Positions 3,812 through 29,047 are shown, counted from the first letter of the stretch. The stretch is DNA of 64,000 nt from a virus (IMGVR_UViG_3300027141_000003:1-64000); one strand, 5' to 3'. The notes: generated by a model not told the origin, from the letters alone. Program-made: numbers and translations.

Positions 3812-3838
3812 CAACCTGAGTAAGTTGCCAAACTGCTC
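3812..3838 (+). ncRNA. candidate 27-nt H-type pseudoknot, copy 1
   Basis: CAAC-CT-GAGTA-A-GTTG-CCAAAC-TGCTC; covarying copies at 5367 and 28962(-). Confidence 0.55.
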
Positions 3839-3850
3839 ACCCTTTGGGGC

Positions 3851-3880
3851 TAGACAAACTCTAACTCCAAATGCTATAAT
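3851..3880 (+). promoter_or_regulatory. sigma-A-type promoter
   Basis: TAGACA-N18-TATAAT with TG extension. Confidence 0.6.
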
Positions 3881-3907
3881 TAAAATCCCTACTAACAAAG
3901 GAACAAA

Positions 3908-4150
3908 ATGAAAAATCGTTATCGTGTAGAAATTTATGACGAAAACAAGTTAAATGATTTAACTATCTATTCTGAGCAAGGTGTCGATAAGGAATACTTA
4001 ACTGAATTAGTATTTTCTAATCTCCGCCGTTTTAACGGAACAATTCGTGCTTACGTTTATGATAATCTAAAGAAAAAGAAAATCACAGCGCTATTTTTAC
4101 CAGAAGAATTTATTCCCAAGAAAACAAACTTAACTAATCTAGTTGGCTAA
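3908..4150 (+). CDS. hypothetical protein
   Basis: ORF with AAAGGA RBS. Confidence 0.7.
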   Translation: MKNRYRVEIYDENKLNDLTIYSEQGVDKEYLTELVFSNLRRFNGTIRAYVYDNLKKKKITALFLPEEFIPKKTNLTNLVG

Positions 4151-4202
4151 AAAGTTGCAGCGATCTTCTCTTTCGCTGCAGCTGGCCCGCAGAGCTGCGG
4201 GG

Positions 4203-4232
4203 TTATCCACAGGGTTACGAGAGTTATCCACA
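4203..4232 (+). promoter_or_regulatory. two perfect DnaA boxes (TTATCCACA), 21 bp apart
   Basis: 4203-4211 and 4224-4232. Confidence 0.65.
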
Positions 4233-4245
4233 ATCCCTGGAAATT

Positions 4246-4261
4246 TGTGATAATGATCACA
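4246..4261. promoter_or_regulatory. CRP/GlxR-like box (perfect)
   Basis: TGTGATAATGATCACA. Confidence 0.65.
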
Positions 4262-4292
4262 TCACCCAATTCGGACATATTGTATCTAATCC

Positions 4293-4321
4293 TAGACAAT
4301 GTCAGTGGCAGATGTTATACT
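4293..4321 (+). promoter_or_regulatory. dual promoter: TAGACA -35 plus PafBC-type TGTCAG-N10-TATACT
   Basis: TAGACAATGTCAGTGGCAGATGTTATACT. Confidence 0.8.
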
Positions 4322-4350
4322 GAATCTAACAACCAATCGAAAGGAATAAA

Positions 4351-5358
4351 ATGGCTCATAATCTAGAAATGGAAAACGGCGAAGTTGCTTTTGCTCTTCG
4401 TGGTGCTCCTGCTTGGCACAATCTAGCAAATCGCATCTTTACAAAAGATGAGGAAGTTACAACTAGTCTAATGCTTGAAGAGGCAAAATTGGCTAATTGG
4501 AATGTTCGCTTATCACCATTGACTGACCACATTTCAGAATCTTGGAATGATGTATCTCAGGCATCTCTCGTCATTCGTGACAACCCATTCAACAAGGGAA
4601 TCGATGTTCTCGCAACTGTCGGCAAGCGTTACAAGCCTGTTCAGAATGAAGAATTGTTTGCATTCGCTGATGCAATTCACGATGCCAATGCTGATTGCCG
4701 TTGGGAATCTGCTGGCTCACTAAAAAAGGGTAAAGTTGTTTTCGGAACTGTGGACATTCCCCGCACAATGGTTCTTGACCCACAAGGCGCTAACGATGAG
4801 ACAAAACTTTATCTTATCGTATGGACATCACACGATGGTTCTGTTGCTGTTCAAGCAGCCGTTACACCTGTTCGTGTAGTATGCCAAAACACGCTAAACC
4901 TTGCAATGAAGAATGCTAAGCAATCTTTCAAGATTCGCCACACGCAATCTGTTGAAGGTCGCATTCAAGTTGCTCGTGAAACTCTTGGGCTTGCTCTTGG
5001 ATACTTTGATGAATTCGAAGTTCAAGCAAAAGCGCTTTACTCACAAGCAATCACCGATGCTGAATTCTCTAAGTTGATTCAGACAATCTATCCTAAGCCA
5101 GATAAAGATGCAGCAAAAGTTGCTCTTACTAAGTGGGAGAATAAGGTTGTTCTAATTGATGACCTTTATCATAACTCACCAACTAACGCTACAATCAAGG
5201 GAACTAAGTGGGGTGCGTTCAATGCACTAACTGAGCGCCTTGATTATTATCGTTCAGGTCGTGGCAATTCTGAAACACTAATGGCTGGTGCTTCAGGCTT
5301 TGACCCAATTCTCACCGCAGAAAAAAATAAGTTGTATCGAATGGTTGCAACTTTCTAA
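4351..5358 (+). CDS. DUF932/DUF945-family phage/plasmid protein
   Basis: MAHN..., AWH, YKPVQN, SHDGS, RVVCQNTL and TKWGAFNALTE motifs. Confidence 0.85.
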   Translation: MAHNLEMENGEVAFALRGAPAWHNLANRIFTKDEEVTTSLMLEEAKLANWNVRLSPLTDHISESWNDVSQASLVIRDNPFNKGIDVLATVGKRYKPVQNEELFAFADAIHDANADCRWESAGSLKKGKVVFGTVDIPRTMVLDPQGANDETKLYLIVWTSHDGSVAVQAAVTPVRVVCQNTLNLAMKNAKQSFKIRHTQSVEGRIQVARETLGLALGYFDEFEVQAKALYSQAITDAEFSKLIQTIYPKPDKDAAKVALTKWENKVVLIDDLYHNSPTNATIKGTKWGAFNALTERLDYYRSGRGNSETLMAGASGFDPILTAEKNKLYRMVATF

Positions 5359-5366
5359 ATAATAAA

Positions 5367-5393
5367 AATCCTAGGCACGATTTAAAACTGCCC
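5367..5393 (+). ncRNA. candidate pseudoknot, copy 2 (immediately 5' of tRNA-Asp)
   Basis: AATC-CT-AGGCA-C-GATT-TAAAAC-TGCC. Confidence 0.5.
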
Positions 5394-5397
5394 GCAA

Positions 5398-5471
5398 GAT
5401 CTCTTAGCTCAGTTGGTTAGAGCGCTACCCTGTCACGGTAGAGGTCACGGGTTCAAGTCCCGTAGGGGTCG
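5398..5471 (+). tRNA. tRNA-Asp (GTC)
   Basis: Cloverleaf: acceptor GATCTCT/AGGGGTC, anticodon arm CTACC-CTGTCAC-GGTAG, TTCAAGT T-loop; CCA not encoded. Confidence 0.92.
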
Positions 5472-5559
5472 CATCTCAAGATATGAGACGCCCGCAGACC
5501 TGAAGGCCAAATGTCCGTTTTACGGCTTTTATAAAAAAACCCCTGAAAGCTATTGTATA

Positions 5560-5581
5560 TGTCAGTGGGGCCTGGTACAAT
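5560..5581 (+). promoter_or_regulatory. PafBC-type promoter (leaderless, ATG 7 nt downstream)
   Basis: TGTCAG-N10-TACAAT-7nt-ATG. Confidence 0.75.
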
Positions 5582-5588
5582 TCTCTTT

Positions 5589-6254
5589 ATGACCAACGAA
5601 CTAGTATCAACTAAATATACATTTGCCTGTGACCCAGACGAATGCGATGTACTAATAGAACTAACATCATCTGACGGATTCGGATTCCCGTCGGGTGTGA
5701 CTGAAATCACTTGTCCGTGTGGCCGTAAGCCAGTCTTATTGTCAGTGGTCAATGCTACAATTGCTTCAACAACCCAAACGAAAGAGGAAAAAATGGAAGA
5801 GACAACAACACCTGCAGTAACAGTTCCTGATACATATAACCCTAATCTATTGGTAACTTACAAAGTTATCCGTGGTTACTCAGATGCTGAATATGCAACT
5901 GACAAGGTCACATCAATTGAATGGGACCTACACAATGCACGTCAAGCACAGAAGCACAATAGTGTTTACCAAGGCAAGATTGACACAGTCAAAGATATTA
6001 TCACTGAAGCATATGCTGATTCAGATGACCAAGAAACACTTCGTGCAATTGCTGAAGCGCTTTCAATTGAACTAATCAGAGAATTTGAATTTACCGCATC
6101 TATCGAGGTTAGCGGAACATATTCATATAACATTCTTGAAAATGATTATGACTTAGACCTTGAGTCAGAAGTTACAGATGCCCTCTTTGCTGATTCACAG
6201 AACGGTAACATTGAAATTACCGACCAAGAAGTATGCAACGTTAGTGAGCGCTAA
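5589..6254 (+). CDS. acidic hypothetical protein with N-terminal Cys motif; second in-frame start at 5793
   Basis: CDPDEC...CPCG N-terminus; internal promoter 5740-5761 and RBS before ATG 5793. Confidence 0.7.
   Translation: MTNELVSTKYTFACDPDECDVLIELTSSDGFGFPSGVTEITCPCGRKPVLLSVVNATIASTTQTKEEKMEETTTPAVTVPDTYNPNLLVTYKVIRGYSDAEYATDKVTSIEWDLHNARQAQKHNSVYQGKIDTVKDIITEAYADSDDQETLRAIAEALSIELIREFEFTASIEVSGTYSYNILENDYDLDLESEVTDALFADSQNGNIEITDQEVCNVSER
5740..5761 (+). promoter_or_regulatory. PafBC-type promoter inside a CDS
   Basis: TGTCAG-N10-TACAAT. Confidence 0.75.
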
Positions 6255-6466
6255 TGTACTTTGAGTTGACTGCTCCCGATAGGCTATCTATGGAGATGGC
6301 TTATTGGGATGCACAAATGATTGGGCTGGACCCAACTGCATTATCACCGTTGACATTCAACATCGGAACTGGTAGTATTGAGAAGGTGAGTCGCATTCGT
6401 GATAAGTATAACTTAATTGAAAGTTATACATCAGACTACGAGCCAACAGGATACACAAGGAGATAA
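6254..6466 (+). CDS. hypothetical protein
   Basis: TAATG coupling. Confidence 0.7.
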   Translation: MYFELTAPDRLSMEMAYWDAQMIGLDPTALSPLTFNIGTGSIEKVSRIRDKYNLIESYTSDYEPTGYTRR

Positions 6467-6467
6467 G

Positions 6468-6614
6468 ATGTCAGATTACAAAGATGGTTTTGATGACGGG
6501 TATAAATTTGCTCGTGAAGAGATTATGGAAAAGTTATCAGAGATTGATATCGCAGACATAGACTCTTGGATCTTAGACCGTCTTTCAGAAATGATCGAAG
6601 GTGGGAAACTATGA
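6468..6614 (+). CDS. small acidic hypothetical protein
   Basis: AGGAG RBS; MSDYKDGFDDGY. Confidence 0.65.
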   Translation: MSDYKDGFDDGYKFAREEIMEKLSEIDIADIDSWILDRLSEMIEGGKL

Positions 6615-6805
6615 TGGCTGAATGGCTTAAGTGTGATCAATGTGCAGCTCAGGCTATGTGGGAAGCTAAAAAGGATACAGCATCCCTTTATTTCTGTGGC
6701 CACCACAAAAATAAACAGGGCGAGCCACTTGTGGACTGGGCCCAAGAAATGATACAATTGCTTAACTACGAGCAAGAACAACAACTAGAAAAGGCGGAAA
6801 AGTAA
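6611..6805 (+). CDS. small zinc-binding protein (CxxC...FCGHH)
   Basis: Motif typical of small actinobacterial/actinophage proteins. Confidence 0.7.
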   Translation: MMAEWLKCDQCAAQAMWEAKKDTASLYFCGHHKNKQGEPLVDWAQEMIQLLNYEQEQQLEKAEK

Positions 6806-7209
6806 TGGGAGATAGAGCAAACTTCGTATTCGTGCAGCCAAACGGTCAATCGATTGTTTTGTACGGACACTGGGCTGGACATCAAATGCTACAACGTTTA
6901 GCAGAATCAGCAGTTAAGGCACAGGGCCGTTGGTCGGACCCTTCATATGCAACACGCATTACAATCAGCAATATGATTGGCGAAGGCTGGGCAATGGAGA
7001 CAGGCTGGGGATTATCTGTAAATGAAATTGCAGACAACGAGCACAAGATTCCTGTAATTGATTTTCAGCAACAGACATTTAGTCTTCACGAAGAGGCGCC
7101 GTATTCAGATGAATCTAATAAGATTCGTGGGATGAAGAATGAGGCAATCTTTACACAGGACCTAAGTAACTTCTGTGAGAAGTACTCAGACCAATTGGTT
7201 CGAGTATAA
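6805..7209 (+). CDS. hypothetical protein (MGDRAN...LYGHWAG)
   Basis: Coupled ORF. Confidence 0.8.
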   Translation: MGDRANFVFVQPNGQSIVLYGHWAGHQMLQRLAESAVKAQGRWSDPSYATRITISNMIGEGWAMETGWGLSVNEIADNEHKIPVIDFQQQTFSLHEEAPYSDESNKIRGMKNEAIFTQDLSNFCEKYSDQLVRV

Positions 7210-7244
7210 CTAATTAATCTAAAGGTGCCTCTATAGTCTTCGCA

Positions 7245-7342
7245 GGCCAGGGGTTAACTAAAGCATCGGATTTTACTTTCGTTGGTTACCGATAGCAGCC
7301 TTAGTAAAGAACCCTGGATCATTAACGTGTCCAGGGCTTTTT
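7245..7342 (+). ncRNA. candidate antisense sRNA/attenuator with loop complementary to the early-gene leader, followed by an intrinsic terminator
   Basis: Stem ATCGG/CCGAT encloses CTTTCGTTGGTT (reverse complement of AACCAACGAAAG); terminator CCCTGGA/TCCAGGG-CTTTTT. Confidence 0.55.
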
Positions 7343-7470
7343 GCTGCCCGCAACAGCTGAGGGGAATAAAGTCTATTTACGGATAACATATATAAATCCT
7401 GGAAATTGGACATATTGGACATATATCTATCTGATCATAGCTTTTGTGGTGTGAATCACACGATATTGCA

Positions 7471-7500
7471 TAGACAAATGTCAGTGGTCCATTATATAAT
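7471..7500 (+). promoter_or_regulatory. PafBC-type promoter with TAGACA -35
   Basis: TAGACAAA TGTCAG-N10-TATAAT. Confidence 0.8.
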
Positions 7501-7527
7501 TAGAACCTATCAACGAAAGGATATAAA

Positions 7528-8319
7528 ATGCCAAATTGGTGTTACAACACATTAACTATCCAAGGACCTAAGTCTGAGGTAGATATGATTAAAGATAGAT
7601 TGAATGCTCCATTTACATTAGCACAAGAGACATATGGTATGGGTGATATTAGTCTTTCAGGATTCCCCACCAAAATTGAACAGGTAAGTTATTCTAATCC
7701 TGTCTTTGCTTTCTTTAATATCCACTCATATAAAGATGAGGGAATTACTGATGAGGAATATGCCTGCCAGCCTTCTCGTGGTAACTATGATATACAAAAT
7801 GACCCTGATTGGTTCCGCAAGTCTGTTGAGTTCGCTAAGACTCAGAAGGATTGGTATTCTTGGAATAATTCTAATTGGGGAACTAAATGGGATGTAGCCG
7901 TCCGTGACGGTGATGAATATCCTGAAACAGAATTGCTTGAATATAAATCAGAAGGTGATGACAACTGGGTTATCTATAAGTATGAGACTGCTTGGTCACC
8001 TGCTGTAACTATCTTAACTAAACTATCTAATCTTGTTCCTAACTGCCTGCTTACTTTAGAGTTTGAGGAAGAGACAGGTTGGGGTGGGGAATATGAGATT
8101 GTTCGTGGTGAAGTAAAAGAACTAGTTGAATATGAAAATCGTTGTAATGAATGTGATTCATATGACACATTGTCTTATTGTGAGAATGACTGCGGTGAAT
8201 TCTGTTCTGAATGCGAGCACGGCTCTTGGAGAGACGAAGAGGCTATGAAAGAATGTCAGACCCATATGCTAACATTACCTATTAAGACCTACACACAGGA
8301 AGAGGCACTAAATGGCTAG
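7528..8319 (+). CDS. DUF1281/YubB ferredoxin-like domain protein
   Basis: MPNWCYN, WGTKWD and TAWSP motifs; Cys-rich C-terminus. Confidence 0.8.
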   Translation: MPNWCYNTLTIQGPKSEVDMIKDRLNAPFTLAQETYGMGDISLSGFPTKIEQVSYSNPVFAFFNIHSYKDEGITDEEYACQPSRGNYDIQNDPDWFRKSVEFAKTQKDWYSWNNSNWGTKWDVAVRDGDEYPETELLEYKSEGDDNWVIYKYETAWSPAVTILTKLSNLVPNCLLTLEFEEETGWGGEYEIVRGEVKELVEYENRCNECDSYDTLSYCENDCGEFCSECEHGSWRDEEAMKECQTHMLTLPIKTYTQEEALNG

Positions 8320-8536
8320 TTTCTTAGAAGATGTAAATCAAATGGTAATTGACGCTTGCTATCAAGATATAGCAGAACAATTACTTGAAGATTGGATTAA
8401 TAATAATCTTGACGAAGGGCAATATTATGCAGATAAGCAATTTGCTGAAATGTCAGGAGATAAGTTTGTTCAATCTGAATTTAATAAGTTCTATGAACTT
8501 AAAGAGGGAGATGAGGGTTACATTGACATACTATAA
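8312..8536 (+). CDS. acidic hypothetical protein
   Basis: Overlapping ORF. Confidence 0.7.
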   Translation: MASFLEDVNQMVIDACYQDIAEQLLEDWINNNLDEGQYYADKQFAEMSGDKFVQSEFNKFYELKEGDEGYIDIL

Positions 8537-8693
8537 CTTTGTAATTAGATTACACGGTGCAGTTGGCGCTAATAGCGAACAAGAAGCAATTGAGAAAATC
8601 AATGGACACTTAGATGACCTAGGTGATGTTGAAAGTATTATTAAGTATGACTTAGGTTGGCCTGAGACATCTTGGGAATTGGAGGAAGCATAA
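8523..8693 (+). CDS. hypothetical protein
   Basis: Probable TTG start after GAGGG. Confidence 0.55.
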   Translation: MTYYNFVIRLHGAVGANSEQEAIEKINGHLDDLGDVESIIKYDLGWPETSWELEEA

Positions 8694-8875
8694 TGTTAGG
8701 ATATACGGAATCTGATCTAAATAGGATGATTAATGCTATACACGATTCAAAGCTTTTTTATCTTAGGACCCCGTCAGATTTAATGGACAAGGAGCCTTTG
8801 AGGAAAGACTTGGAAGACGCTGTTAGTTTCTTGCAAGGTTTGTGGGCGGAGGGTTACTTTGACTACACAAACTAA
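8693..8875 (+). CDS. hypothetical protein
   Basis: GGAGG RBS; TAATG coupling. Confidence 0.65.
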   Translation: MLGYTESDLNRMINAIHDSKLFYLRTPSDLMDKEPLRKDLEDAVSFLQGLWAEGYFDYTN

Positions 8876-9044
8876 ATCTAGTAAGTTCATAGAGTATATG
8901 AAGATACATCTAATTAGTCTTAACCAGGACTTAGAGGGTGATTATAATGTTCAATCTAAGATTAATATCCAGGGACAAATTATGGCAACCGAACATTTAT
9001 TGTCAGTGGCGACTGATATAATGAATGAAAACGAAAGGGTCTAA
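8859..9044 (+). CDS. hypothetical protein with embedded promoter
   Basis: Ends ...LSVATDIMNENERV. Confidence 0.6.
   Translation: MTTQTKSSKFIEYMKIHLISLNQDLEGDYNVQSKINIQGQIMATEHLLSVATDIMNENERV
9001..9022 (+). promoter_or_regulatory. PafBC-type promoter
   Basis: TGTCAG-N10-TATAAT. Confidence 0.75.
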
Positions 9045-9045
9045 T

Positions 9046-9324
9046 ATGGAAACTCTATATAAGGATGATGAACTTCCTTTGCACCTCCAGCGTTTAGTTG
9101 ACGCAGGTGTTAATGGATTAGATATAATGCACGGCGAACTAAAGAATCTAATGTTGATTGCCGAAGAGCAATTGGCTTGGGCTCAGGCAATTGAAGATGA
9201 GACCGAAGAGGCAATGGATTCAATGGCACGTACAGAGGCGGAAGGACGACTAGATACTCTAGTTGAACTATATAAACTAACATATGCTTTATCATTTGCG
9301 ATTGGAGCACGTAATGAAGCCTGA
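9046..9324 (+). CDS. hypothetical protein
   Basis: AACGAAAGGG RBS. Confidence 0.7.
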   Translation: METLYKDDELPLHLQRLVDAGVNGLDIMHGELKNLMLIAEEQLAWAQAIEDETEEAMDSMARTEAEGRLDTLVELYKLTYALSFAIGARNEA

Positions 9325-9634
9325 AGATAAAGATAAACTAAACGAATGTTTGGCTATTCTAGATAAGACGGACCTAGGTCTATCCTTAGTTTGGCTATGG
9401 ACTTGGTCTACCATTAACAACATATTTGAGGATGAGACGTACAGGCAGAACTGCACCATAGATGAGATGTGGGACCACCTCTGTGAGGCTGTAGAGGCGG
9501 GCCAGGGCTTCTCTCTGGAGTACGGGGCAGAACAGCACAATGATGACGTCCTTGACTGGATGTTAAGCCGTGACTACATTGTTGACTCAATGTTTGAAGA
9601 AGAGGAAGAGGAGGAAGAAGATGAAGATGAGTGA
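9314..9634 (+). CDS. acidic hypothetical protein with poly-Glu tail
   Basis: Overlapping ORF. Confidence 0.7.
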   Translation: MKPEDKDKLNECLAILDKTDLGLSLVWLWTWSTINNIFEDETYRQNCTIDEMWDHLCEAVEAGQGFSLEYGAEQHNDDVLDWMLSRDYIVDSMFEEEEEEEEDEDE

Positions 9635-9914
9635 CACCTACATCAATGATCAGTTAAGTAAGGCCCAAGCTTTGTTATGGTCTGGATCTCTACACGAGGT
9701 AGACGAAGCACATAACATTGTATCTAATCTAATACAAGATAGGTTGGGCAATGAGTAAATATAAAGTAAAGATAGAGATAGTAGGGGGAGTCCCATATGT
9801 TCTTGAATGCCCACCTGAAGTAGATGTTGAGATTAAACAGGTTAATCATTGGCAGAGGTGGCGTGAACAACAAAAACTAATTAAAGATAAGTTGGTAAAG
9901 GAAGGAGGGCAAAA

Positions 9915-10148
9915 ATGACTCATTATGAGCCGAGCTTAGAAATCCTGGAAGTTGAGTATTCTTGTAGTCCAGGAGGAATTGATCTATTTGAAGTCTATGA
10001 TAAATCTGATATACCTTTATCTGTCCCAATATATGAGACAGAGAACTTGACCGATGCGGTCCTATTCTGTTACAATTTAGGTAAAGACTTTACTGTCAGG
10101 ACATTAGCGGAATGGAATGAAAGGGAGTTGGAGTATGCCTCTATATAG
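9915..10148 (+). CDS. hypothetical protein
   Basis: AAGGAGG RBS. Confidence 0.7.
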   Translation: MTHYEPSLEILEVEYSCSPGGIDLFEVYDKSDIPLSVPIYETENLTDAVLFCYNLGKDFTVRTLAEWNERELEYASI

Positions 10149-10335: not shown

Positions 10336-10346
10336 GCGGAAAGCTA

Positions 10347-10375
10347 TTTACAATTTCGTAAATAGTTGATATAAT
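10347..10375 (+). promoter_or_regulatory. sigma-A-type promoter
   Basis: TTTACA-N17-TATAAT. Confidence 0.65.
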
Positions 10376-11113: not shown

Positions 11114-11123
11114 GTGAAAAAAA

Positions 11124-22619: not shown

Positions 22620-22762
22620 TATTTCTCCTTAACGCTAACTACTTTAACGTTTTTAATTTCATCGTCTACGCCAAATATATCATTAGCATAATCTAGAGCA
22701 TCGCTTTCATCAAAGGCTTCTACTTCTGCCGTTACTTCAAGCTTAACTTTGTATGTGTTCAT

Positions 22763-23347
22763 TTACTTACCGCAGGTTGGGCATACTTTTGTTTTAGCTT
22801 TAGCAGGCTTTTGTTCTGCAATTGGTGCTGCTGCTTTAAACTTTGGACGACCAAATCCAACAATAGATATTAAAACTCCTGCTTTGTTTTTCTTGTAGGC
22901 ACGGAGTTGTTTGCAAACTTCTCCGCCATTTCTTTGGCTCCCAGACTTCTTTGAAGATGTGTTTCCTTCAATACACCAAACGGTTCCGTCTTCATTGTCT
23001 TTAACAACAATACCTACGTGAGAAACCCTATCGACGCCATCTGAAGGGAAATCAAAATAGGCTATATCTCCTGGTTCTGGATCTGCAATATCTCCATCAA
23101 TCCATGCGTTAGCTTTTTTAAATGCTGTTACTCCTGCTGGAGTATAAACTGTATTAGGAATCTTTACGCCAGATTCGTTCCCGCACCAATTTACGAAACT
23201 TCCGCACCATGGTTGGAAATTAGCTTTAGTGTAAGCACCATACTTTGTTTCGTTATCCTTTGGACCTTCAATAGTCCCAATCTCTGCTGTAGCAACTTCG
23301 ATTAAACGTGCTGCTGTGCCTTGGTCTGCCATTATTCTTTGTCCCAA
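22763..23347 (-). CDS. endolysin, CHAP domain
   Basis: PWCGSFVNWC, HVGIV and IEGNT. Confidence 0.88.
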   Translation of the reverse strand: MGQRIMADQGTAARLIEVATAEIGTIEGPKDNETKYGAYTKANFQPWCGSFVNWCGNESGVKIPNTVYTPAGVTAFKKANAWIDGDIADPEPGDIAYFDFPSDGVDRVSHVGIVVKDNEDGTVWCIEGNTSSKKSGSQRNGGEVCKQLRAYKKNKAGVLISIVGFGRPKFKAAAPIAEQKPAKAKTKVCPTCGK

Positions 23348-23742
23348 TCTGTATCAACTGGTTGTTCTGCTGGCATCTCTCCGTCTGGCTTTGCCGCTAA
23401 ACGTGCTGCAGTTGCATCAATTTCTGCTTCAAGCTTCTTGTCTGCCTGTGTATTCTTTGCATCTACTTCTTTATTTTGTATTTGGGCCGCCATAATATCC
23501 TTGGCACCTGAATTGCCAATCAAAATTCCTGCAAGTGTGCCTGTAATAAATGTTGCAATACTACCTAGAACATTAAAGAACATCTTGTCATTTTCTGACT
23601 GAGCTCCTATGGGCTGTGTTACAAACAATAGTCCGTAAATAATTCCGACTGCTGTTAGAAACAGGATGCTTCCAAGAGTTATTCCTAGAATAAACTTTAA
23701 ACGAGCATCTAAGTCTGCTGGGGTTAGCTTTTGTTTAGCCAT
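23332..23742 (-). CDS. two-TM membrane protein, putative holin
   Basis: Two hydrophobic helices; adjacent to the endolysin. Confidence 0.6.
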   Translation of the reverse strand: MAKQKLTPADLDARLKFILGITLGSILFLTAVGIIYGLLFVTQPIGAQSENDKMFFNVLGSIATFITGTLAGILIGNSGAKDIMAAQIQNKEVDAKNTQADKKLEAEIDATAARLAAKPDGEMPAEQPVDTDWDKE

Positions 23743-23950
23743 TTGTTATTTCCTGTTCTGGTGTTGTAGGTGTAATTTTTATTACATCATTTGTGCAAGT
23801 CTGTGAAGCTTCACATACTGGAGGATTACATTCTGCAATTTCCCAATTTTTAGGATCTTGACATGGGTATCTATAGAATCCACTATAGCCACATGAACTC
23901 AATGATACCATTAATAGTCCAGCTAAAGCAATAGCAGTTATTTTCTTCAT
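23735..23950 (-). CDS. lipoprotein
   Basis: Lipobox LSSC; Cys/Pro-rich. Confidence 0.75.
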   Translation of the reverse strand: MKKITAIALAGLLMVSLSSCGYSGFYRYPCQDPKNWEIAECNPPVCEASQTCTNDVIKITPTTPEQEITNG

Positions 23951-23964
23951 ACTACTATTATACC

Positions 23965-24147
23965 CTATTCTGAGTTTCTATTTCTGATAGGACTAGTTAC
24001 TATCCATAGAGCAGTAGTAGCTATAATGCCATAACCGACTATATCTTTAGCACTTCCGTCCAAAACAACCCAAGCAATAAACATACCAAGAAGGGTCCAT
24101 GCTTGGTCTACCATATCTTTTAGGATATTCTTTATTATTCTTACCAT
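23965..24147 (-). CDS. small two-TM membrane protein
   Basis: WTLLGMFIAWVVLDG. Confidence 0.65.
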   Translation of the reverse strand: MVRIIKNILKDMVDQAWTLLGMFIAWVVLDGSAKDIVGYGIIATTALWIVTSPIRNRNSE

Positions 24148-26906
24148 TTTCTTCTTCCTCCTCGACCTGGTGAATTAGCTCCTGAGCCTCCACCAGAATT
24201 TCCTCCGCCTCCTGTGCTACCCCCTGTGGCTCCTCCTGTTGCAACTGCTGCTGCGTTAATTGCTGCACCTGCTGCTACAACTGTTGCTACAACCATTTCA
24301 GTTGCCTCTTCTCTTTCGCCTTCTGTCATATCTGCACCTATGCTTCCCAAGGCCTGTAGGGCTGCTCCTGGGTCATTAAATAACTCTTGTGCAAATGCCG
24401 CTGGGTCAGATATTAATTCTACTTGTACTGCAACTTCTGCAGTAATTACAACCGAGTCACCATTTTCAGATGTTCTAACATCAACTGGTGTGCTTGCTGG
24501 CAAATCTGATAACTTAATTCCAGCTTCCGCTACCTGTTCTTTAGTAAGATTTTCACCTTCTGGAACAGATTGAATTAATGCATCGGCAACAATATCTTTT
24601 TCTGCTTCAGATAATTTACCATCTGAGTTAGCTAATTCAACAATGGCTGCAACATCCTCTTTTGAAACTTCGCCGTCTGACGCAAGTGCTTCCAGAACTG
24701 CTTCTTGATCTGCTACAGAAACTTTTCCATCTTCTGCCAATGCTTCAATTAACTGATTAGTTTCTTCTGCATCAATTTCACCATCTGCAGACATAGCTTC
24801 TGCAATTGCTTCAACTTCTGTACTATCAATTTTACCATCTTCCAATGCATCATCAACTGTATTTGTTACATCTTCTTCTGATCCCGTCACAGGCTCTGTA
24901 TCAACTGGTTCTGTTTCCACAGGTGTGGTATCAACTGGTTCTGTTTCCACAGGCTCTGTGTCTACTGGTTCTGTTTCCACAGGTGTGGTATCAACTGGTT
25001 CTGTTTCCACAGGTGTGGTATCAACTGGTTCTGTTTCCACAGGCTCTGTGTCTACTGGTTCTGTTTCCACAGGCTCTGTGTCTACTGGTTCTGTTTCCAC
25101 AGGCTCTGTGTCTACTGGTTCTGTTTCCACAGGTGTGGTATCAACTGGTGTGGTAGTTACTGGTGTAGTGTCTACAGGTGGCACGACTACGGGTGTAGTG
25201 TCTACAGGTGGCACGACTACGGGTGTAGTGTCTACAGGTGGCACGACTACGGGTGTAGTGTCTACAGGTGGCACGACTACGGGTGGTTCAACTGGTGCAG
25301 GTGGAGCAGGGGCTGGCAAGGGCGCTGGTGCAGGAACTGCATCAATTACTGTTTGAGCTGCTGCCACTATTGTAGGTGCTGTAGTTACTTTTTCTACGGC
25401 TGTAGAAACAATTGCAAGGTCTGCCACCTTTTCAGTCAATGTTGTGCTTGCTGTTGATAATGCCGTTACAGTATTTTGTGAAACAGTTGCAATTGGTGCA
25501 ATAACTGTATTTGTATTTGCTGTATTTGTTGCAACAATAGCAGTAACTGCTGAGTTTAATGTAGCAATTTGTGCATTTGCTGTATCAATTGCTGCCAAGA
25601 CTGTTGAATTGTCTGGATCAGGGGTGGGAGTAAATGCAGCGCCTTGACTAATTGTTCCAGTAAATCCCGTAGTAGTGCTTGTATTACTAATATTTGTTAC
25701 GGGACCATTTGTAGTTTCTCTTACGTTAAATCTAGCACCATTTGGGATTGGTCCAGTCACGCTTACATCTGCCTGCCAGGCACCATCTGAAGGATTAACA
25801 TCCGCATTAAATCTAACTTGAGTCATTTGTGTTTCTGCTGTTTGCAAAGGATAAACTCTAAGATCCCAAGCAACGCTAAGTGTATTGGTAGTTGTTGAGT
25901 ATGTAATTCCAGATCCATTACTCCAAGTAGTCCAGTCATACCCTGCTATAGAAATGGAAGGTGCATTAGGTGTAGAATAATAATTTGCACCCTCATTTAC
26001 TCCAAAGGTGATTGTCGCATTAGATCCTACAAAAACATTATTATATGTGACTCCGCCCATCTGTAAATTAAATGGAAGATTCATGCGAACACCAGCATCA
26101 TCTACATTAGATAAAACATTTGTGGTTGTACCAATAGTTGCAGCAAGGGCATTGACTGCATCTTGAGCATTATTAATTGCTACGTTTGCTTGAGTTAATT
26201 GTGTTTGAGCCTCTGTCCGTGCAGGAGTTACTGCTGCTACAGCCGTAGTTGCTGTTGCTACTGTGGCCGTTGCGGTATCTATTGCCGCCTGAGCTACCTG
26301 TATTGCAGTAGAAGCTGTTGCAGCCTGTGCTACTTCTGTTGTAATTGCGGTTGCTACTTGAGTAACTGTAGTGGGGGTTTCAGGCATTAAAGGGGATGCT
26401 GTTGCTATAACCGTTGCAGTTGCAGATTCAATAACGGGAACCGCTGCTGTAACAGCTACTTGTGCTGTAGCAACTTCTGGTGTTTGAGTTGTAGCACTTA
26501 CTGGAATTGCTGCTACCGCTTGTGTAACGGATGCTACCGTTGAAGTAATTGTTTGAACAACCGCTGTCGCTGTTTCTACGGCTGTGGACACATTAGACAC
26601 TTCCGCCACTGCTGTAGTTGCTGCAGTCACAGCCGTTGTTGCGGCAGTTACTGCGGCATTAGATGCTGTTACTGCCTGTACAGCTGTTGCTGTTGTGACA
26701 GTGGACGTATCTGATGCTGCTATGGCCTGTGCAACTTCTGTAGTTGCGGTTGCAATGGCTGTATTTACTGCCTGCTGTGCAGGGCTTACAACAACTTGCT
26801 CTGAGGGGGCTGGTGGCTCATTAGCATTAGCAAAGTTAGGACTAAAAAGGAAAAGCCAGCCGATTATAAAAAGGCTGGTTAAAAAATACTTTAACTTTCT
26901 AGTCAA
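24141..26906 (-). CDS. large secreted/membrane-anchored Ala/Thr/Pro-rich protein with tandem repeats
   Basis: Signal peptide, beta-rich central domain, PVDTEPVETE repeats, DG[KE][IVL][DS] repeats, hydrophobic C-terminus plus basic tail. Confidence 0.75.
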   Translation of the reverse strand: MTRKLKYFLTSLFIIGWLFLFSPNFANANEPPAPSEQVVVSPAQQAVNTAIATATTEVAQAIAASDTSTVTTATAVQAVTASNAAVTAATTAVTAATTAVAEVSNVSTAVETATAVVQTITSTVASVTQAVAAIPVSATTQTPEVATAQVAVTAAVPVIESATATVIATASPLMPETPTTVTQVATAITTEVAQAATASTAIQVAQAAIDTATATVATATTAVAAVTPARTEAQTQLTQANVAINNAQDAVNALAATIGTTTNVLSNVDDAGVRMNLPFNLQMGGVTYNNVFVGSNATITFGVNEGANYYSTPNAPSISIAGYDWTTWSNGSGITYSTTTNTLSVAWDLRVYPLQTAETQMTQVRFNADVNPSDGAWQADVSVTGPIPNGARFNVRETTNGPVTNISNTSTTTGFTGTISQGAAFTPTPDPDNSTVLAAIDTANAQIATLNSAVTAIVATNTANTNTVIAPIATVSQNTVTALSTASTTLTEKVADLAIVSTAVEKVTTAPTIVAAAQTVIDAVPAPAPLPAPAPPAPVEPPVVVPPVDTTPVVVPPVDTTPVVVPPVDTTPVVVPPVDTTPVTTTPVDTTPVETEPVDTEPVETEPVDTEPVETEPVDTEPVETEPVDTTPVETEPVDTTPVETEPVDTEPVETEPVDTTPVETEPVDTEPVTGSEEDVTNTVDDALEDGKIDSTEVEAIAEAMSADGEIDAEETNQLIEALAEDGKVSVADQEAVLEALASDGEVSKEDVAAIVELANSDGKLSEAEKDIVADALIQSVPEGENLTKEQVAEAGIKLSDLPASTPVDVRTSENGDSVVITAEVAVQVELISDPAAFAQELFNDPGAALQALGSIGADMTEGEREEATEMVVATVVAAGAAINAAAVATGGATGGSTGGGGNSGGGSGANSPGRGGRRKW
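24890..25285 (-). repeat. coding 30-bp tandem repeats (PVDTEPVETE and PVVVPPVDTT units)
   Basis: ACTGGTTCTGTTTCCACAGG... and GGGTGTAGTGTCTACAGGTGGCACGACTAC arrays. Confidence 0.9.
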
Positions 26907-26964
26907 CTAGGTATCTCCTAAGTAATGCAATATCTTTGCTTACTTAGTTAATTATACCATGTTG

Positions 26965-27150
26965 TTATTTAATATTATCTGTTTTGTAGAAGCCATTGCC
27001 TTTAAACTGTATACCAAAAGAACCGTAATGTCTCTGCATTTTTTTACCACATAGGTTACACAAGTAGTTTGGCTCAACAGAATTTATAGATCTTTCTTTT
27101 GATACAATATCTTCTGGAGAACATTCGCATTTGTATTCATAGATTGGCAT
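26965..27150 (-). CDS. FmdB-family zinc-ribbon protein
   Basis: MPIYEYKC...CNLCG...FKGNGFYKTD. Confidence 0.85.
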   Translation of the reverse strand: MPIYEYKCECSPEDIVSKERSINSVEPNYLCNLCGKKMQRHYGSFGIQFKGNGFYKTDNIK

Positions 27151-27741
27151 CTATTCCCGCACCTCTTTATATCTGAATGCTATAGCTGCTCTTGAAACAT
27201 GTGGGTTTAATCCATGGAATACTCCCCTGGGAACAACGATTATATCTCCTGGTTCCACTGTTACTGTCTGTATTGGTTCTATCCCTCTACCCTGATCATC
27301 TTTGTTTAAAAATACTTGCCAAATTGTTGATCCTTGACATTGCCAAAACACGCTGTCTACATCATCTACATGCGTTGGAACCATCATGCCGTTGCCAACT
27401 ATATTCAAGAATGTTCCACCTCCGTTAGTTTTTTCGTCATACACTTCGTTGAAAAAATTAACCACATCTTTACATTCTGGGAAAAAAGTAAACTCACCCT
27501 TTGATGTTGCTTCTCTGACATGGAAATAATAACCAGTTTTAGCAACAGTCCCATTATGTATTGTGTGCCATTCATCAGACTCTTCTTGAGGGCCTTCTGG
27601 CGTAGTGTTAAAATGATAATCTAAATGATTAATGAATTGATCCCACTTTGGCACATTAATAAACATCGATTTTATCTGCAGGATCTTCTTGTCAGACCTG
27701 GCCTGCTCAATCATTTGACTTACTTCATCTTTAGATATCAT
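27151..27741 (-). CDS. JmjC/cupin-domain oxygenase
   Basis: HVDDVD, WQCQG and PGDIIVVPRGVFH. Confidence 0.8.
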   Translation of the reverse strand: MISKDEVSQMIEQARSDKKILQIKSMFINVPKWDQFINHLDYHFNTTPEGPQEESDEWHTIHNGTVAKTGYYFHVREATSKGEFTFFPECKDVVNFFNEVYDEKTNGGGTFLNIVGNGMMVPTHVDDVDSVFWQCQGSTIWQVFLNKDDQGRGIEPIQTVTVEPGDIIVVPRGVFHGLNPHVSRAAIAFRYKEVRE

Positions 27742-28537
27742 TTATTTTTTTTACCATTCTGTGTATTCGATAGTGCTCATCATCCATCTGAGCTCTGCTT
27801 GCTAAAATATCCGTTATTCCTTCTTTTCCCATATTTTTTATCTGTTCTATTATCTCATTTTCTGTACCAAAAAGGCAAGACCCTTTAATCATATTGTTTG
27901 GCAATTGATTATATATATCCTCTGCCTCTTCTTTAGTATCACGTATTATTATTGGCCCAGAGACTATTTTTTTGTTTGTTTTAATTAAATCTTTTAACCC
28001 ATCTTTATAGCTAGAGTACATAGATAGGTGTGCATCGGCATAATTATTGGCATTTACAATAGTTTCTTTAGATGTTCCGCTTATAACTATTTCTGGTTTA
28101 TTTTTTAGCAAGGTCAGGTTTGTAAATTTTTCTAACCACTCAGAAGTATATTTTACCCTATCCTCATGCGTTGTTAAAAGATTTGATATTGCAACAACAT
28201 CAGATACGCTAGTTTCGTCAGACTGTATATCTCCAGCAGCAATATTTAATATCAGCCTGTTGGGGGACAGCTCATTAAACGCTTCACACATCATTGCACA
28301 GTATTCTGGGCTTATTGCATATGTTCTCATTGCAATCATATACTTTAATTTATGGTCTGGATTAATTATATTGGCTATCTTGATCCAATAGTCAGGAATT
28401 TGTGAGTGATATACGGTTAAAGTAGAGTAATATCCAGCAAACTCTAGTACGTTAGATAAAGTTTTGAGTTCTTCTGGGCTACCCCCATCAAACCTCTGCA
28501 TCCAATGAATATTTGGCTTGCCATTTACAGCCATCAC
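27731..28537 (-). CDS. luciferase-like (LLM) flavin monooxygenase
   Basis: Resembles SsuD-like TIM barrels (LKYMIAMR, RLILNIAAG). Confidence 0.7.
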   Translation of the reverse strand: MMAVNGKPNIHWMQRFDGGSPEELKTLSNVLEFAGYYSTLTVYHSQIPDYWIKIANIINPDHKLKYMIAMRTYAISPEYCAMMCEAFNELSPNRLILNIAAGDIQSDETSVSDVVAISNLLTTHEDRVKYTSEWLEKFTNLTLLKNKPEIVISGTSKETIVNANNYADAHLSMYSSYKDGLKDLIKTNKKIVSGPIIIRDTKEEAEDIYNQLPNNMIKGSCLFGTENEIIEQIKNMGKEGITDILASRAQMDDEHYRIHRMVKKINDI

Positions 28538-28941
28538 TTACCGCTCTTTTTTCTCTTCTCTGCTAAGGCTACAAAATCTTTAACCTTAGTTTCGCCCATG
28601 TATCCCCAAGCGTATCCATCTTCAATCATCTGTTCGTTAATAGACTTTGTGTTGCCGTCTATGTAAATCCAGCCAAGTATGCGACCATACTTTTCTGTGC
28701 TGTCTGGCTTTTCTGTTTTTACAACAATAACATTTGCGTCTTTAAACTTAGACTTAAGATATTCTTTTGATTCGAGACCTAATGTCTTTTCAAGTTTATC
28801 GGTAGTTCTAGACTCTGGGGTATCAATTCCTGCCAGTCTAAGTCTTTGAGCATATGAAATGCTAAATCCTAAATCTATGTCGACATCTACTGTGTCTCCA
28901 TCTACAATTTTTGTTACTTGCTTAATTCTGTACTCAAACAT
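28534..28941 (-). CDS. thermonuclease (SNase family)
   Basis: IVDGDT, RLAGIDTPE and KYGRILG. Confidence 0.9.
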   Translation of the reverse strand: MFEYRIKQVTKIVDGDTVDVDIDLGFSISYAQRLRLAGIDTPESRTTDKLEKTLGLESKEYLKSKFKDANVIVVKTEKPDSTEKYGRILGWIYIDGNTKSINEQMIEDGYAWGYMGETKVKDFVALAEKRKKSGK

Positions 28942-28961
28942 TATTCTCCTAAAATATTAAA

Positions 28962-29047
28962 GAGCAGTTTGCGGACGTGCTCAGGTCCATCTTTCGGGTA
29001 GCGACCCGAATAGTCTGCGACTCCCCAGTGACGGGGTGCAGATCTCC
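28962..29047 (-). ncRNA. structured leader/sRNA ending in pseudoknot copy 3
   Basis: TATAAT at 29048-29053; stems TCTGC/GCAGA, CCCC/GGGG and TTCGGGT/ACCCGAA, then GGAC-CT-GAGCA-C-GTCC-GCAAAC-TGCTC. Confidence 0.55.

Follow-up and report, generated by a model that had tools for sequence, protein, structure and literature searches.

A phage genome of 109,912 bp (~110 kb; 38% GC) carries a 27-nt sequence, repeated between its genes, that has the makings of an H-type pseudoknot, raising the question of what so compact an RNA does at gene boundaries. We addressed this question in a 64,000-nt stretch of the genome (the window), from which the motif had been described by a sequence-only reading, and in other phages and bacteria that carry the same motif.

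Three copies in one phage genome

The window holds exactly three copies, all intergenic and on the sense strand, which follow the consensus NNNC-CU-GRGYA-N-GNNN-NNAAAC-UGCYC. Each of the three sequences lies at the position and on the strand first reported for it (3812-3838, plus; 5367-5393, plus; 28988-28962, minus), within the following set of features:

3812..3838, plus strand: pseudoknot copy 1 (covariance model 37.7 bits, E 3e-9, the top match in the genome)
3812-3815 with 3824-3827, plus strand: stem 1 (P1) of copy 1, with loop 1 (L1, CU) at 3816-3817
3818-3822 with 3834-3838, plus strand: stem 2 (P2) of copy 1, with the junction base at 3823 and loop 3 (L3, CCAAAC) at 3828-3833
3840..3848, plus strand: small hairpin, CCC-UUU-GGG, one base 3' of copy 1 and similar to the second hairpin (hp2) of coremin RNAs (see below)
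3851..3880, plus strand: promoter-like site, TAGACA, 18-nt spacer, TATAAT with TG (11/12 matches; a consensus match only)
4351..5358, plus strand: DUF932 gene (Pfam DUF932, E 1.1e-55), whose stop codon precedes copy 2
5367..5393, plus strand: pseudoknot copy 2 (33.9 bits)
5398..5472, plus strand: tRNA-Asp(GUC) (ARAGORN and Rfam tRNA)
28534..28941, minus strand: staphylococcal-nuclease homologue (Pfam SNase, E 2.7e-17), downstream of copy 3
28962..28988, minus strand: pseudoknot copy 3 (36.6 bits), in the leader of the nuclease gene
28995..29036, minus strand: two hairpins outside the core motif, CCCC-GUCACU-GGGG (29036-29023) and CGGGU-CGCU-ACCCG (29008-28995), between the -10-like box and copy 3
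29048..29056, minus strand: TAGTATAAT, an extended -10-like box directly 3' of the hsp20 stop codon
29057..29476, minus strand: Hsp20/alpha-crystallin gene (Pfam HSP20, E 1.1e-18), upstream of copy 3

The settings initially described for the three copies, behind an open reading frame, ahead of a tRNA gene and in a nuclease leader, likewise hold. Copy 1 begins 48 nt past the stop codon of ORF 3347-3763, and the promoter-like site that follows it stands 5' of ORF 3908-4150, indicating that copy 1 ends the upstream expression unit. The hairpin behind copy 1 is replaced at orthologous loci by different sequences that still pair at the same spot (ACACC/GGUGU at one locus, UCCC/GGGA at two and UCC/GGA at another). 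Copy 2 is fitted between the DUF932 stop codon, 8 nt upstream, and tRNA-Asp, 4 nt downstream. Copy 3 lies 20 nt 5' of the nuclease ATG and 68 nt past the hsp20 stop codon, a distance that shrinks to 5 nt between the homologous stop and the knot at two other loci; in its orthologue at locus L023, stem 1 is identical and loop 3 differs (GC to CG). The two hairpins upstream of copy 3 are kept at L023 and occur in altered versions at two further loci. The TAGTATAAT box, which a consensus promoter scan did not call because it has no -35 element, recurs behind hsp20 homologues at six other loci, with the knot 7-60 nt further on. At two of these (L119 and L120), and at copy 3, the knot comes right after the promoter-like -10 box, at the 5' end of a predicted transcript.

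The window contains a 13-base skeleton of the motif, CCTNNGNANGNNNNNAAACTGC, exactly three times, and so does the whole 109,912-bp genome, where allowing one mismatch yields no additional copy; at two mismatches, a shuffled window gives 1.16 matches in total. A covariance-model search of the genome found no fourth copy, and weak model matches at 39485, 64128, 84875 and 99615 were set aside, since all that they have in common is AAACUGC(U/C)C.

A covarying fold spread across phages and bacteria

The fold comprises a 4-bp stem 1 of free sequence with an invariant closing C-G pair, a 2-nt loop 1 (CU), a 5-bp, sequence-conserved stem 2 (GRGYA/UGCYC), a single bulged junction base and a 6-nt loop 3 that ends in an invariant AAAC. 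Stem 1 was originally noted to vary between copies while pairing every time, as it does in the window (CAAC/GUUG, AAUC/GAUU and GGAC/GUCC), and the proposed pairing of the loop with the downstream UGC(U/C)C is present in all three copies: GAGUA/UGCUC with one G-U pair, GGCA/UGCC over 4 bp with A7.C27 unpaired, and GAGCA/UGCUC. This compensatory change remains strong for both helices in a larger alignment of 145 distinct copies from other phages and bacteria. Pairing over all cells of this alignment reaches 96.6%, against 80.5% in shuffles (0/500 of which attain the observed value), and falls to 27-43% when the partners are slid. The stem-1 pairs 2-15 and 3-14 are formed in 100% of the copies with four pair types each; the stem-2 cells are 99.4% paired, with pair 8-26 occurring as A-U in 105 copies and as G-C in 39, and unpaired in one. 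Phage S-EIVl adds the compensatory variants A7-U27 and U10-A24. Both helices covary, and the fold is supported far beyond chance. Taken by itself each helix is marginally stable (+0.4 to -5.2 kcal/mol), yet the two are conserved jointly, which argues for a cooperative knot, and the analogous luteoviral and coremin pseudoknots suggest that the stem-1 minor groove probably accommodates loop 3. The invariance of AAACUGC is set by the search pattern itself, and the two leading spacer positions vary.

By pattern scan, the motif recurs in viral contigs (at least 120) and in bacterial contigs (at least 119). Its carriers include phages of cyanobacteria, alphaproteobacteria and firmicutes, crAss-like phages and the chromosomes of many bacterial phyla, and phages of at least five bacterial phyla possess it; cultured examples are Synechococcus phage S-EIVl, Mycobacterium phage Labelle, Roseobacter phage SIO1 and ParKuw1, which render the knot directly testable. 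The initial guess that the window derives from an actinophage is reasonable, in that the genome belongs to a distant relative of Streptomyces phages and its terminase is 62% identical to theirs, but the motif is not confined to actinophages, given its distribution over many phyla; both of the nearest cultured relatives, Streptomyces phages Jay2Jay and Francob, were checked and lack it.

Despite its abundance, the motif has no matching family in Rfam 15, in keeping with the view that it could not be assigned to a known one: a scan of the whole window at gathering scores returned two tRNAs only, and the regions around copies 1 and 3 gave no match to the motif at E<=10. A string search of the literature for the conserved RNA and DNA words retrieved only primers and unrelated sequences, and literature searches on prokaryotic exonuclease-resistant RNAs (xrRNAs) turned up no description of it. 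Together with the covariation, this outcome supports the proposal of a compact functional RNA, put forward as an exonuclease block, a processing signal, a protein-binding site or an aptamer; at 27 nt it would rank among the smallest conserved structured RNAs known.

The same compensatory changes bear on whether the motif might instead act as DNA. A promoter, a protein operator or a recombination linker between gene modules would account for a repeated, sequence-conserved element at gene boundaries, lying at a promoter-suitable distance upstream of tRNAs and start codons. Compensation in two interleaved helices, coupled with strict strand specificity, nonetheless indicates a single-stranded RNA, and sigma-70-like promoters stand separately beside several copies; we consider a DNA-level role scarcely credible. 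The interleaved, covarying helices also led us to reject a promoter for a phage polymerase or one of the N4 hairpin type, and no T7-like RNA polymerase was found by a search of the genome with Pfam PF00940, a search that was silent in control genomes too.

A tiny aptamer or protein site is another way to read the conservation pattern. The free stem 1, set against invariant loops and stem 2, recalls small riboswitch aptamers such as preQ1-I (RF00522), with which the motif shares a minimal H-type knot, a short conserved stem 2 and an A-rich 3' loop ending in AC; the breadth of its phylogenetic distribution could suggest a universal partner, such as a widely conserved RNA-binding protein whose operator this would be, and copy 2 precedes tRNA-Asp, a queuosine-bearing tRNA. 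On the other hand, no riboswitch in Rfam matches, even at E<=10, and we rejected preQ1-I itself, which has no match at gathering scores either. Where the preQ1-I aptamer has a junction loop with a cytidine that reads the ligand, the knot has just one base, which may be any of the four (T 51%, A 36%, C 11%, G 3%), and this precludes a pocket of that type. Moreover, stem 2 is clear of Shine-Dalgarno sequence and terminator, leaving the knot with no expression platform; queuosine genes are not associated with it; the downstream genes belong to no consistent class; and a spot just past stop codons would be unusual for a sensor. We therefore view a sensor or operator as doubtful.

Position at gene ends and a proposed barrier to decay

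Across copies, the knot is read as RNA in the sense orientation. An open reading frame on the same strand ends 0-19 nt upstream in 121/222 copies, compared with 21/222 in an antisense control. In 65/119 viral copies (55%) the stop codon ends 5-9 nt upstream of the knot, and in none at 0-4 nt, whereas the start codon of the following gene lies at widely varying distances (10-40 nt in 67/131 and longer in 41/131, with some copies 17-36 nt ahead of a start codon). The knot is hence anchored to the upstream gene. In 19-24 copies a tRNA begins 3-13 nt past the knot, always at an mRNA-to-tRNA boundary and on the same strand as the knot; the order gene, knot, tRNA-Asp of copy 2 is repeated at eleven other loci, and Asn, Arg, Gly, Ser and Val tRNAs are found in this place as well, while the downstream genes are unrelated to each other. 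Five type III hammerheads begin 0-6 nt past the knot, which puts self-cleavage 6-13 nt after it, and in bacteria a strong intrinsic terminator often follows.

These distances indicate that the knot is neither a terminator nor a promoter, because tRNAs and start codons stand too near downstream to have promoters of their own. An intrinsic terminator was rejected on the grounds that tRNAs only 3-13 nt away and start codons 17-36 nt away must be co-transcribed and that the sequence past the knot is only mildly enriched in T (40-46% at +3 to +10); no terminator was called at the three sites in the window. Copy 3 reads UGCUCUUUAA, resembling rrn boxA, but the bases past UGCUC are unconserved among copies, marking the likeness as chance.

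Of the functions listed in the sequence-only reading, an exonuclease or decay block fits the genomic context best. We propose, with a probability of roughly 0.45, that the knot mechanically blocks 3'-to-5' decay and so protects the message upstream of it, the direction being drawn from geometry only. Each copy would be transcribed within a longer message and fold into the 27-nt pseudoknot, forming a protein-independent barrier at the end of the cistron. Once RNase P at a tRNA, a hammerhead or any endonuclease acting on the following cistron has cut the downstream RNA, 3'-to-5' exonucleases would degrade back only as far as the knot, and the upstream message would retain its stop codon and remain translatable. 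PNPase, RNase II and RNase R act poorly on 3' tails as short as those left by such cuts. At copy 2, the upstream RNA would end 4 nt past the knot once RNase P has cut at the 5' end of tRNA-Asp. Copies 1 and 2 may thus stabilize the messages of ORF 3347-3763 and the DUF932 gene, and copy 3 any read-through transcript from the hsp20 gene, with the knot typically set as near the stop codon as a terminating ribosome would permit without unwinding it. A mechanism that needs no partner fits the spread of the motif over phages of at least five phyla and many bacterial phyla, and it is favored by probable copies in Vibrio and Erwinia phages, whose hosts are not known to have a 5'-3' exonuclease such as RNase J.

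Several observations sit less easily with a 3' barrier. Around half of the viral knots are followed at 10-40 nt by another gene with no recognizable cut site between, and for copies right behind a -10-like box, a cap at the 5' end would make more sense than one at the 3' end. The relatives characterized so far, described below, stop 5'-to-3' rather than 3'-to-5' enzymes. The terminator that often follows bacterial knots is already a 3' protection in its own right, and in one bacterial class the stop codon falls inside the knot, which ribosomes must unfold. The strong conservation of stem 2 and the loops could also mean a ligand or protein partner.

Alternatively, the knot could itself direct processing, as a minimal tRNA-like, RNase P or RNase E recognition element or as a tiny self-cleaving RNA, and in this way divide polycistronic transcripts. 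Its copies stand between cistrons and beside tRNAs and ribozymes, RNase P is able to cut pseudoknotted tRNA-like structures, and in some copies the stacked helices are followed by A and often CC, as in an acceptor-like end. This ACC tail is weakly conserved, however (A 64%, C 48%, C 38%), and we discarded a tRNA-like ACCA tail as a feature; nine stacked base pairs are fewer than a mimic of the tRNA acceptor/T-arm would have, and such a signal would be redundant beside a tRNA or hammerhead that already provides a cut. A processing role accordingly seems quite unlikely.

Relatives among viral RNAs

Judged by sequence and architecture, the closest described relative of the knot is coremin (xrRNA-C), the Xrn1-resistant RNA of beny-, cucumo- and many other eukaryotic RNA viruses (PMC6546385, PMC10520033). 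Both coremin and its Watson-Crick variant, close to the knot in architecture, have been shown to stop an exonuclease and ribosomes mechanically (PMC6546385, PMC10520033, PMC10321173), a point in favor of the barrier that we propose. The coremin 5' hairpin has a C-G-closed stem of 3-4 bp and a YGAD loop (or YGNNAD, with 7-8-nt loops tolerated; PMC6546385); the knot has a 4-bp stem with an invariant C4-G13 and an 8-nt loop, CUGRGYAN, with an extra U before the G. Both stems are short and often GUC/GAC, and in both a C opens the loop and precedes a G and an A; the loop of the knot ends in A-N, N rarely being C or G, and resembles the tolerated coremin heptaloop CGAGUAA, coremin accepting loops of 6-8 nt. 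The spacers, UUAAACUAC in coremin and NNAAACUGC in the knot, are nearly identical. In the 10-nt coremin spacer, G-UUAAACUAC, the first two U are replaceable and AAA, CU and AC are essential (PMC6546385); the knot shows the same tolerance, with two variable leading positions and AAACUGC kept (by the search pattern), and some natural copies (S-EIVl, Javan383) have the exact CUAC spacer. Like the knot, coremin sits just past open reading frames, in 3' UTRs or intergenic regions. The two differ in that the coremin loop is 4 nt and makes only a non-canonical contact with the spacer, whereas the knot forms a 5-bp Watson-Crick stem 2; in that coremin stalls Xrn1 only when a second hairpin follows it directly; and in their hosts, eukaryotic RNA viruses as opposed to DNA phages and bacteria.

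The Watson-Crick variant, xrRNA-WCC, was selected in vitro and occurs naturally in Sanxia picorna-like virus 5 and in a chrysovirus (PMC10321173). It is a canonical H-type knot whose loop GAG pairs with CUC past an AAA-rich spacer, the loop-downstream pairing that the phage and bacterial knot also has, and it shares an unchangeable loop-1 base and predicted A-minor contacts of the spacer with stem 1. Its stem 2 is 3 bp and its loop 1 is 1 nt (G), in contrast to 5 bp and CU here; it is known from few eukaryotic viruses, and it stimulates frameshifting without a second hairpin (PMC10321173) but still requires one for exonuclease resistance.

This likeness raises the possibility that the knot is a prokaryotic xrRNA of the coremin type, stopping enzymes that travel 5' to 3' (RNase J, or an RNase E that scans from a 5' monophosphate) and guarding the RNA downstream, be it the next cistron, a tRNA precursor or the nuclease message. 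Some copies lie at the extreme 5' end of a predicted transcript or closely ahead of a start codon, and copy 1 and its orthologues possess a coremin-like second hairpin. Viral xrRNAs also halt bacterial RNase J1 in vitro (PMC5760640). Against this, the second hairpin is not a general feature: a hairpin of at least 4 bp begins 0-3 nt past the knot in 25/244 copies (10%), which is background (9-14% at control offsets). The knot is placed by the upstream stop codon and not by the downstream start, hammerheads and RNase P would sever it from the RNA supposedly protected, and in bacteria there is often nothing but a terminator downstream. The probable copies in phages whose hosts would have no RNase J again weigh against a 5' block, which we rate as distinctly less probable than not.

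The luteoviral -1 frameshift pseudoknots of BWYV, PLRV and ScYLV (PMC10321173) are of the same size class (26-28 nt) and share a short, C-initial loop 1, a bulged junction base, an A-rich loop 3 ending in C/A and docked in the stem-1 minor groove, and a location 5-9 nt past the A-site codon. They reside in overlapping reading frames behind a slippery heptamer, however, where the prokaryotic knot has a stop codon (in 65/119 viral copies), and BWYV-type knots do not stall Xrn1 (PMC10321173). The shared spacing suggests that the knot could be a ribosome barrier, held at the mRNA entrance of a ribosome with the stop codon in its A site, which would keep read-through or sliding ribosomes from the next tRNA, ribozyme or ribosome-binding site and uncouple neighboring cistrons. 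The 5-9 nt between stop and knot, with a sharp minimum of 5, equal the established spacing of A-site codon and frameshift pseudoknot (PMC10321173), scanning ribosomes are halted by coremin, which also induces frameshifting (PMC10520033, PMC10321173), and the micro-ORF class described below has a knot that overlaps the stop codon. Yet a simple spacer would guard downstream folds equally well, a pile-up at the minimum distance is equally expected of any element that must stay folded and compact, inspection of flanking sequences by eye reveals no shared slippery heptamer 5-9 nt upstream, and copies 48-80 nt past a stop codon, such as copies 1 and 3 of the window, cannot act in this way. A ribosome barrier is consequently improbable in our estimate, somewhat more so than the 5' block.

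The job that we propose for the knot, that of halting 3' exonucleases past a stop codon, is performed elsewhere by 3'-terminal stabilizer hairpins, among them the RNase III-processed intercistronic hairpins of T7, REP elements and terminator hairpins. These are plain hairpins of unrelated sequence, in contrast to a pseudoknot whose sequence is conserved across phyla. It is possible, though the odds are against it, that the motif represents the first prokaryotic xrRNA-like knot resistant to exoribonucleases or ribosomes: a universal, protein-independent boundary element with which phages and mobile elements of most bacterial phyla would divide polycistronic decay into gene-sized units, and that arrived at the coremin design by ancestry or convergence. 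If the knot blocks decay or ribosomes, phages and mobile elements would have a general, portable rule for setting the boundaries and lifetimes of messages without proteins, and the xrRNA concept would extend from eukaryotic RNA viruses to DNA phages and bacteria. Such an element might serve as a compact stabilizer or insulator in synthetic operons, and, in annotation, could mark where the genes of uncultured phages truly end and which way their transcripts run.

Within one bacterial class the knot encloses the stop codon of a conserved micro-ORF, at a fixed distance from the last conserved Cys codon; as part of the same tentative view, this version may be a translational sensor that works with a nascent peptide. 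Searches of Pfam and NCBIfam assigned the micro-ORF to no credible family (the sole row was a chance-level NCBIfam match, E 0.058), and comparison of the class with Rfam gave only a sub-threshold resemblance to the Leu leader. The genes next to the micro-ORF are heterogeneous, and free-living bacteria carry one copy of the knot per genome in the four such genomes searched whole.

The pseudoknot in the phage genome

Inspection of the window verified the coordinates, strands and letters that the sequence-only reading had given for three copies of a 27-nt H-type pseudoknot (the knot), as well as the contexts claimed for them: after a gene, before tRNA-Asp and in a nuclease leader. Placement is, as proposed, intergenic and in the transcribed orientation for 3/3 copies, on the sense strand of their neighbors.

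Knot copies in the window
3812-3838 (+): copy 1, 48 nt 3' of ORF 3347-3763 and just 5' of a strong promoter-like site (from ORF calls and promoter consensus)
5367-5393 (+): copy 2, 8 nt 3' of the DUF932 gene; tRNA-Asp begins 4 nt downstream
28988-28962 (-): copy 3, 68 nt 3' of the hsp20 gene and 20 nt 5' of the ATG of a staphylococcal-nuclease homologue

A count of the shared skeleton, CCTNNGNANGNNNNNAAACTGC, gives exactly three, both for the window and for the complete genome (a virus record of 109,912 bp and 38% G+C, in which the 'direct terminal repeat' amounts to an exact overlap of 127 bp), with no extra copy at one mismatch in the whole genome; at two mismatches, window shuffles set the chance level at 1.16 matches. 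A covariance model, built later, recovers the same three copies from the genome at 34-38 bits, and the matches ranking below them are merely fragments sharing AAACUGC(U/C)C.

The -35-like word TAGACA lies on both sides of copy 1 (3794-3799 and 3851-3856, +), the second forming an 11/12 promoter match together with a TG-extended TATAAT. Directly behind the hsp20 stop is an extended -10-like box, (T/G)GTATAAT (29048-29056, -), this TAGTATAAT box standing upstream of copy 3. The order of hsp20, a (T/G)GTATAAT box right after its stop, the knot, about 20 nt, and a small zinc-ribbon (FmdB-like) or nuclease gene is kept at 29048-29056 (-) of the window and at L023, L037, L059, L095, L119 and L120 (L-numbers denote loci carrying the knot or a knot-like match); at L119 and L120 the predicted transcript +1 approximates the knot start. 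Two small hairpins (29036-28995, -) between the TAGTATAAT box and copy 3, found also at L023, L095 and L037, are conserved among related phages, some of the changes being compensatory, and might make up a longer structured leader of the nuclease or zinc-ribbon gene.

The nearest cultured relatives of the window phage are Streptomyces phages (identity 62% for the terminase, about 50% for DUF932), which are about 130 kb in size; the knot is absent from the two such relatives searched. Because the genome has only 38% G+C yet its terminase and DUF932 protein resemble those of Streptomyces phages, a low-GC, perhaps freshwater, actinobacterial host is suggested.

Distribution, covariation and nearest known designs

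An exact pattern with 14 fixed bases matches at least 120 viral loci in IMG/VR, several of which, among the matches listed, carry 2-4 copies each. A stricter pattern matches at least 119 contigs in a one-genome-per-species bacterial collection, the listed matches spanning Saccharibacteria, Omnitrophota, Desulfobacterota, Aminicenantes, Planctomycetota, Chloroflexota, Cyanobacteria, Firmicutes, Bacteroidota and Proteobacteria. The consensus is NNNC-CU-GRGYA-N-GNNN-NNAAAC-UGCYC, in which positions 1-4 and 13-16 form stem 1 and positions 7-11 and 23-27 form stem 2; no conservation extends into the flanks beyond these 27 (perhaps 28) bases.

The larger alignment supports both helices. Among the 145 distinct copies listed, stem-1 pairs 2-15 and 3-14 are formed in 145/145, with four pair types each, and the outer pair 1-16 in 72%, while stem-2 pair 8-26 is A-U in 105, G-C in 39 and unpaired in 1; C-G and U-G alternate at pair 10-24. 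Over all cells, 96.6% are paired as compared to 80.5% after shuffling, a level that 0/500 shuffles reach, and pairing drops to 27-43% when the partners are slid. Positions 8 and 26 of the viral set, left free by the search pattern, still correspond one-for-one; the pattern-free positions show the behavior expected of a pseudoknot. Either helix by itself is barely stable, indicating that the two must form together. Rfam 15 is negative both with gathering scores and with a cutoff of E<=10, and the literature searched yielded no paper describing the knot. The element is real, widespread and uncatalogued in Rfam 15 and in the literature searchable here, in agreement with the cautious initial reading of a compact functional RNA lacking an assigned family. 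A role as a ligand or protein site is improbable.

The knot resembles luteoviral frameshift knots and preQ1-I, but its nearest neighbors in design are coremin-type xrRNAs, the Xrn1-resistant RNAs of eukaryotic RNA viruses. Coremin (GUCCGAAGACGUUAAACUAC) combines a hairpin of 3-4 bp, whose loop is YGAD, with a spacer of 10 nt that tolerates replacement of its first two U but not of AAA, CU or AC, and a second hairpin is required for coremin to stall Xrn1 (PMC6546385). It tolerates loops of 6-8 nt and blocks scanning ribosomes (PMC10520033), and stimulates -1 frameshifting; in an in-vitro-selected Watson-Crick variant, stem 2 is GAG/CUC and the second hairpin is needed for Xrn1 resistance only (PMC10321173). 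Both RNAs have a stem closed by C-G (often GUC/GAC in each) and a C leading the loop; the GAG/CUC pairing is a further likeness, and eight or nine spacer positions match with the same pattern of freedom, certain knot copies reading UUAAACUAC. The knot differs in its 8-nt loop, its 5-bp stem 2 and, as a rule, its want of a second hairpin: one follows directly in 10% of the copies listed, the level at control offsets, although copy 1 and its orthologues do have such a hairpin, with covarying sequence. Given these shared and differing features, we set membership in the coremin family aside and treat the knot as a new variant of compact triplex-type pseudoknot, related to coremin in design. Triples of C5 in the major groove and of A19-A21 in the minor groove are predicted.

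Cultured or named carriers were sought by BLAST, with a consensus 32-mer, and then by covariance model. Synechococcus phage S-EIVl (KJ410740.1) has seven copies on the minus strand between 25894 and 43013 (L269, L271-L276), all 5-11 nt after stop codons. Its natural variants, which map the positions that can change, include the exact coremin CUAC spacer, C22G, and a loop 1 of CC with an A7-U27 pair, the compensatory changes being A7-U27 and U10-A24. The knot also lies 6 nt 3' of gene 85 in Mycobacterium phage Labelle, 9 nt 3' of the ribonucleotide reductase gene in Roseobacter phage SIO1, and 4-5 nt before tRNA-Val in crAss-like phage cr124_1, and is present in Paracoccus phage ParKuw1 and Streptococcus phage Javan383. 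Vibrio phages, with CC as loop 1, and Erwinia phage Calisson, with a single mismatch in stem 1, carry slightly divergent forms. The Calisson match, conserved in nine Erwinia amylovora phages, lies in more than 1 kb devoid of any annotated feature (L277, OQ818696.1 24866-25895).

Stop codons lie close upstream of the knot, and RNA cleavage sites often close downstream

The knot is a strand-specific element: a same-strand ORF ends 0-19 nt upstream in 121/222 copies listed versus 21/222 in the antisense control, and a DNA element is scarcely credible. Among the 119 viral copies listed, the gap from stop codon to knot is never 0-4 nt, whereas gaps of 5, 6, 7, 8 and 9 nt occur in 26, 10, 6, 12 and 11 cases. 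A ribosome with a stop codon in its A site reaches about 5 nt; the minimum thus approximates ribosome reach, and the knot appears to lie as near the gene as possible without being unwound. That the knot serves as a barrier to ribosomes at stop codons is, in our estimate, quite unlikely.

Downstream, the next ORF starts within 10-40 nt in 67/131 copies listed, and a tRNA begins 3-13 nt after the knot in 19-24 of the matches listed. Adjacent tRNAs are always on the knot's strand, with the knot always at the mRNA-to-tRNA boundary, and copies lacking a near ORF or tRNA have longer downstream gaps. A complete type III hammerhead follows five of the matches listed by 0-6 nt, its stem III beginning beside the knot, such that self-cleavage would fall 6-13 nt downstream.

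Knots followed by a hammerhead
L008, L012, L024: viral loci
L132, L167: bacterial metagenome-assembled genomes (MAGs)

A role for the knot itself as processing signal or ribozyme is highly improbable. Since tRNAs and start codons lie so near downstream, an efficient terminator or promoter is ruled out; the knot is an element situated inside polycistronic RNA.

From this placement we infer that the knot is a mechanical barrier, and favor, at a probability of roughly 45%, one that would halt 3'-to-5' decay and spare the upstream cistron. The upstream stop codon, rather than a downstream start, sets its position, and an RNase P or hammerhead cut would leave the knot as a 3'-terminal structure with a 3-13-nt tail, too short for a good grip by PNPase, RNase II or RNase R. 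To our knowledge 3' exonucleases are universal, which agrees with the host range. Three observations weigh against such a barrier: roughly half of the copies listed have no recognizable downstream cut site, some lie at predicted transcript 5' ends (such as copy 3 behind its TAGTATAAT box), and a terminator follows many of the bacterial matches listed. A coremin-like block to 5'-to-3' decay by RNase J or scanning RNase E draws on the finding that flaviviral xrRNAs stop RNase J1 (PMC5760640), but RNase P and hammerhead cuts would detach the knot from the downstream RNA it should protect, and we consider this alternative somewhat unlikely.

A micro-ORF associated with bacterial copies

In 42/122 bacterial matches listed, a conserved micro-ORF of 16-27 codons, M(K/T)RFM(I/V)PR(V/T)AHCxxGC, has a stop codon that overlaps the knot or immediately precedes it; this ORF has no credible Pfam or NCBIfam family.

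Loci with the micro-ORF
L126, L137, L139, L141, L155, L156, L166, L176, L188, L197, L204, L218
About 30 more bacterial loci; L256-L259

Its alignment displays the third-codon-position wobble expected for coding sequence, its reading frame keeps a constant register with the knot, and its stop is often the UGA within CCUGAG of the knot. The unit carries a promoter-like site and a Shine-Dalgarno sequence of its own; what comes next is often a terminator belonging to the unit or a gene for an Rrf2-family regulator, and each of four genomes searched whole has a single copy of the unit. When the last conserved Cys codon fills the A site, the knot would lie 7 nt further on, where the RNA enters the ribosome, hinting at a peptide-plus-knot translational device in bacteria. 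At L154 (an Anaerolineae MAG, 640-699), a tandem pair of knots 6 nt apart stands behind one micro-ORF, and at L203 the first copy is followed by a degenerate second (a CCCGGG variant).
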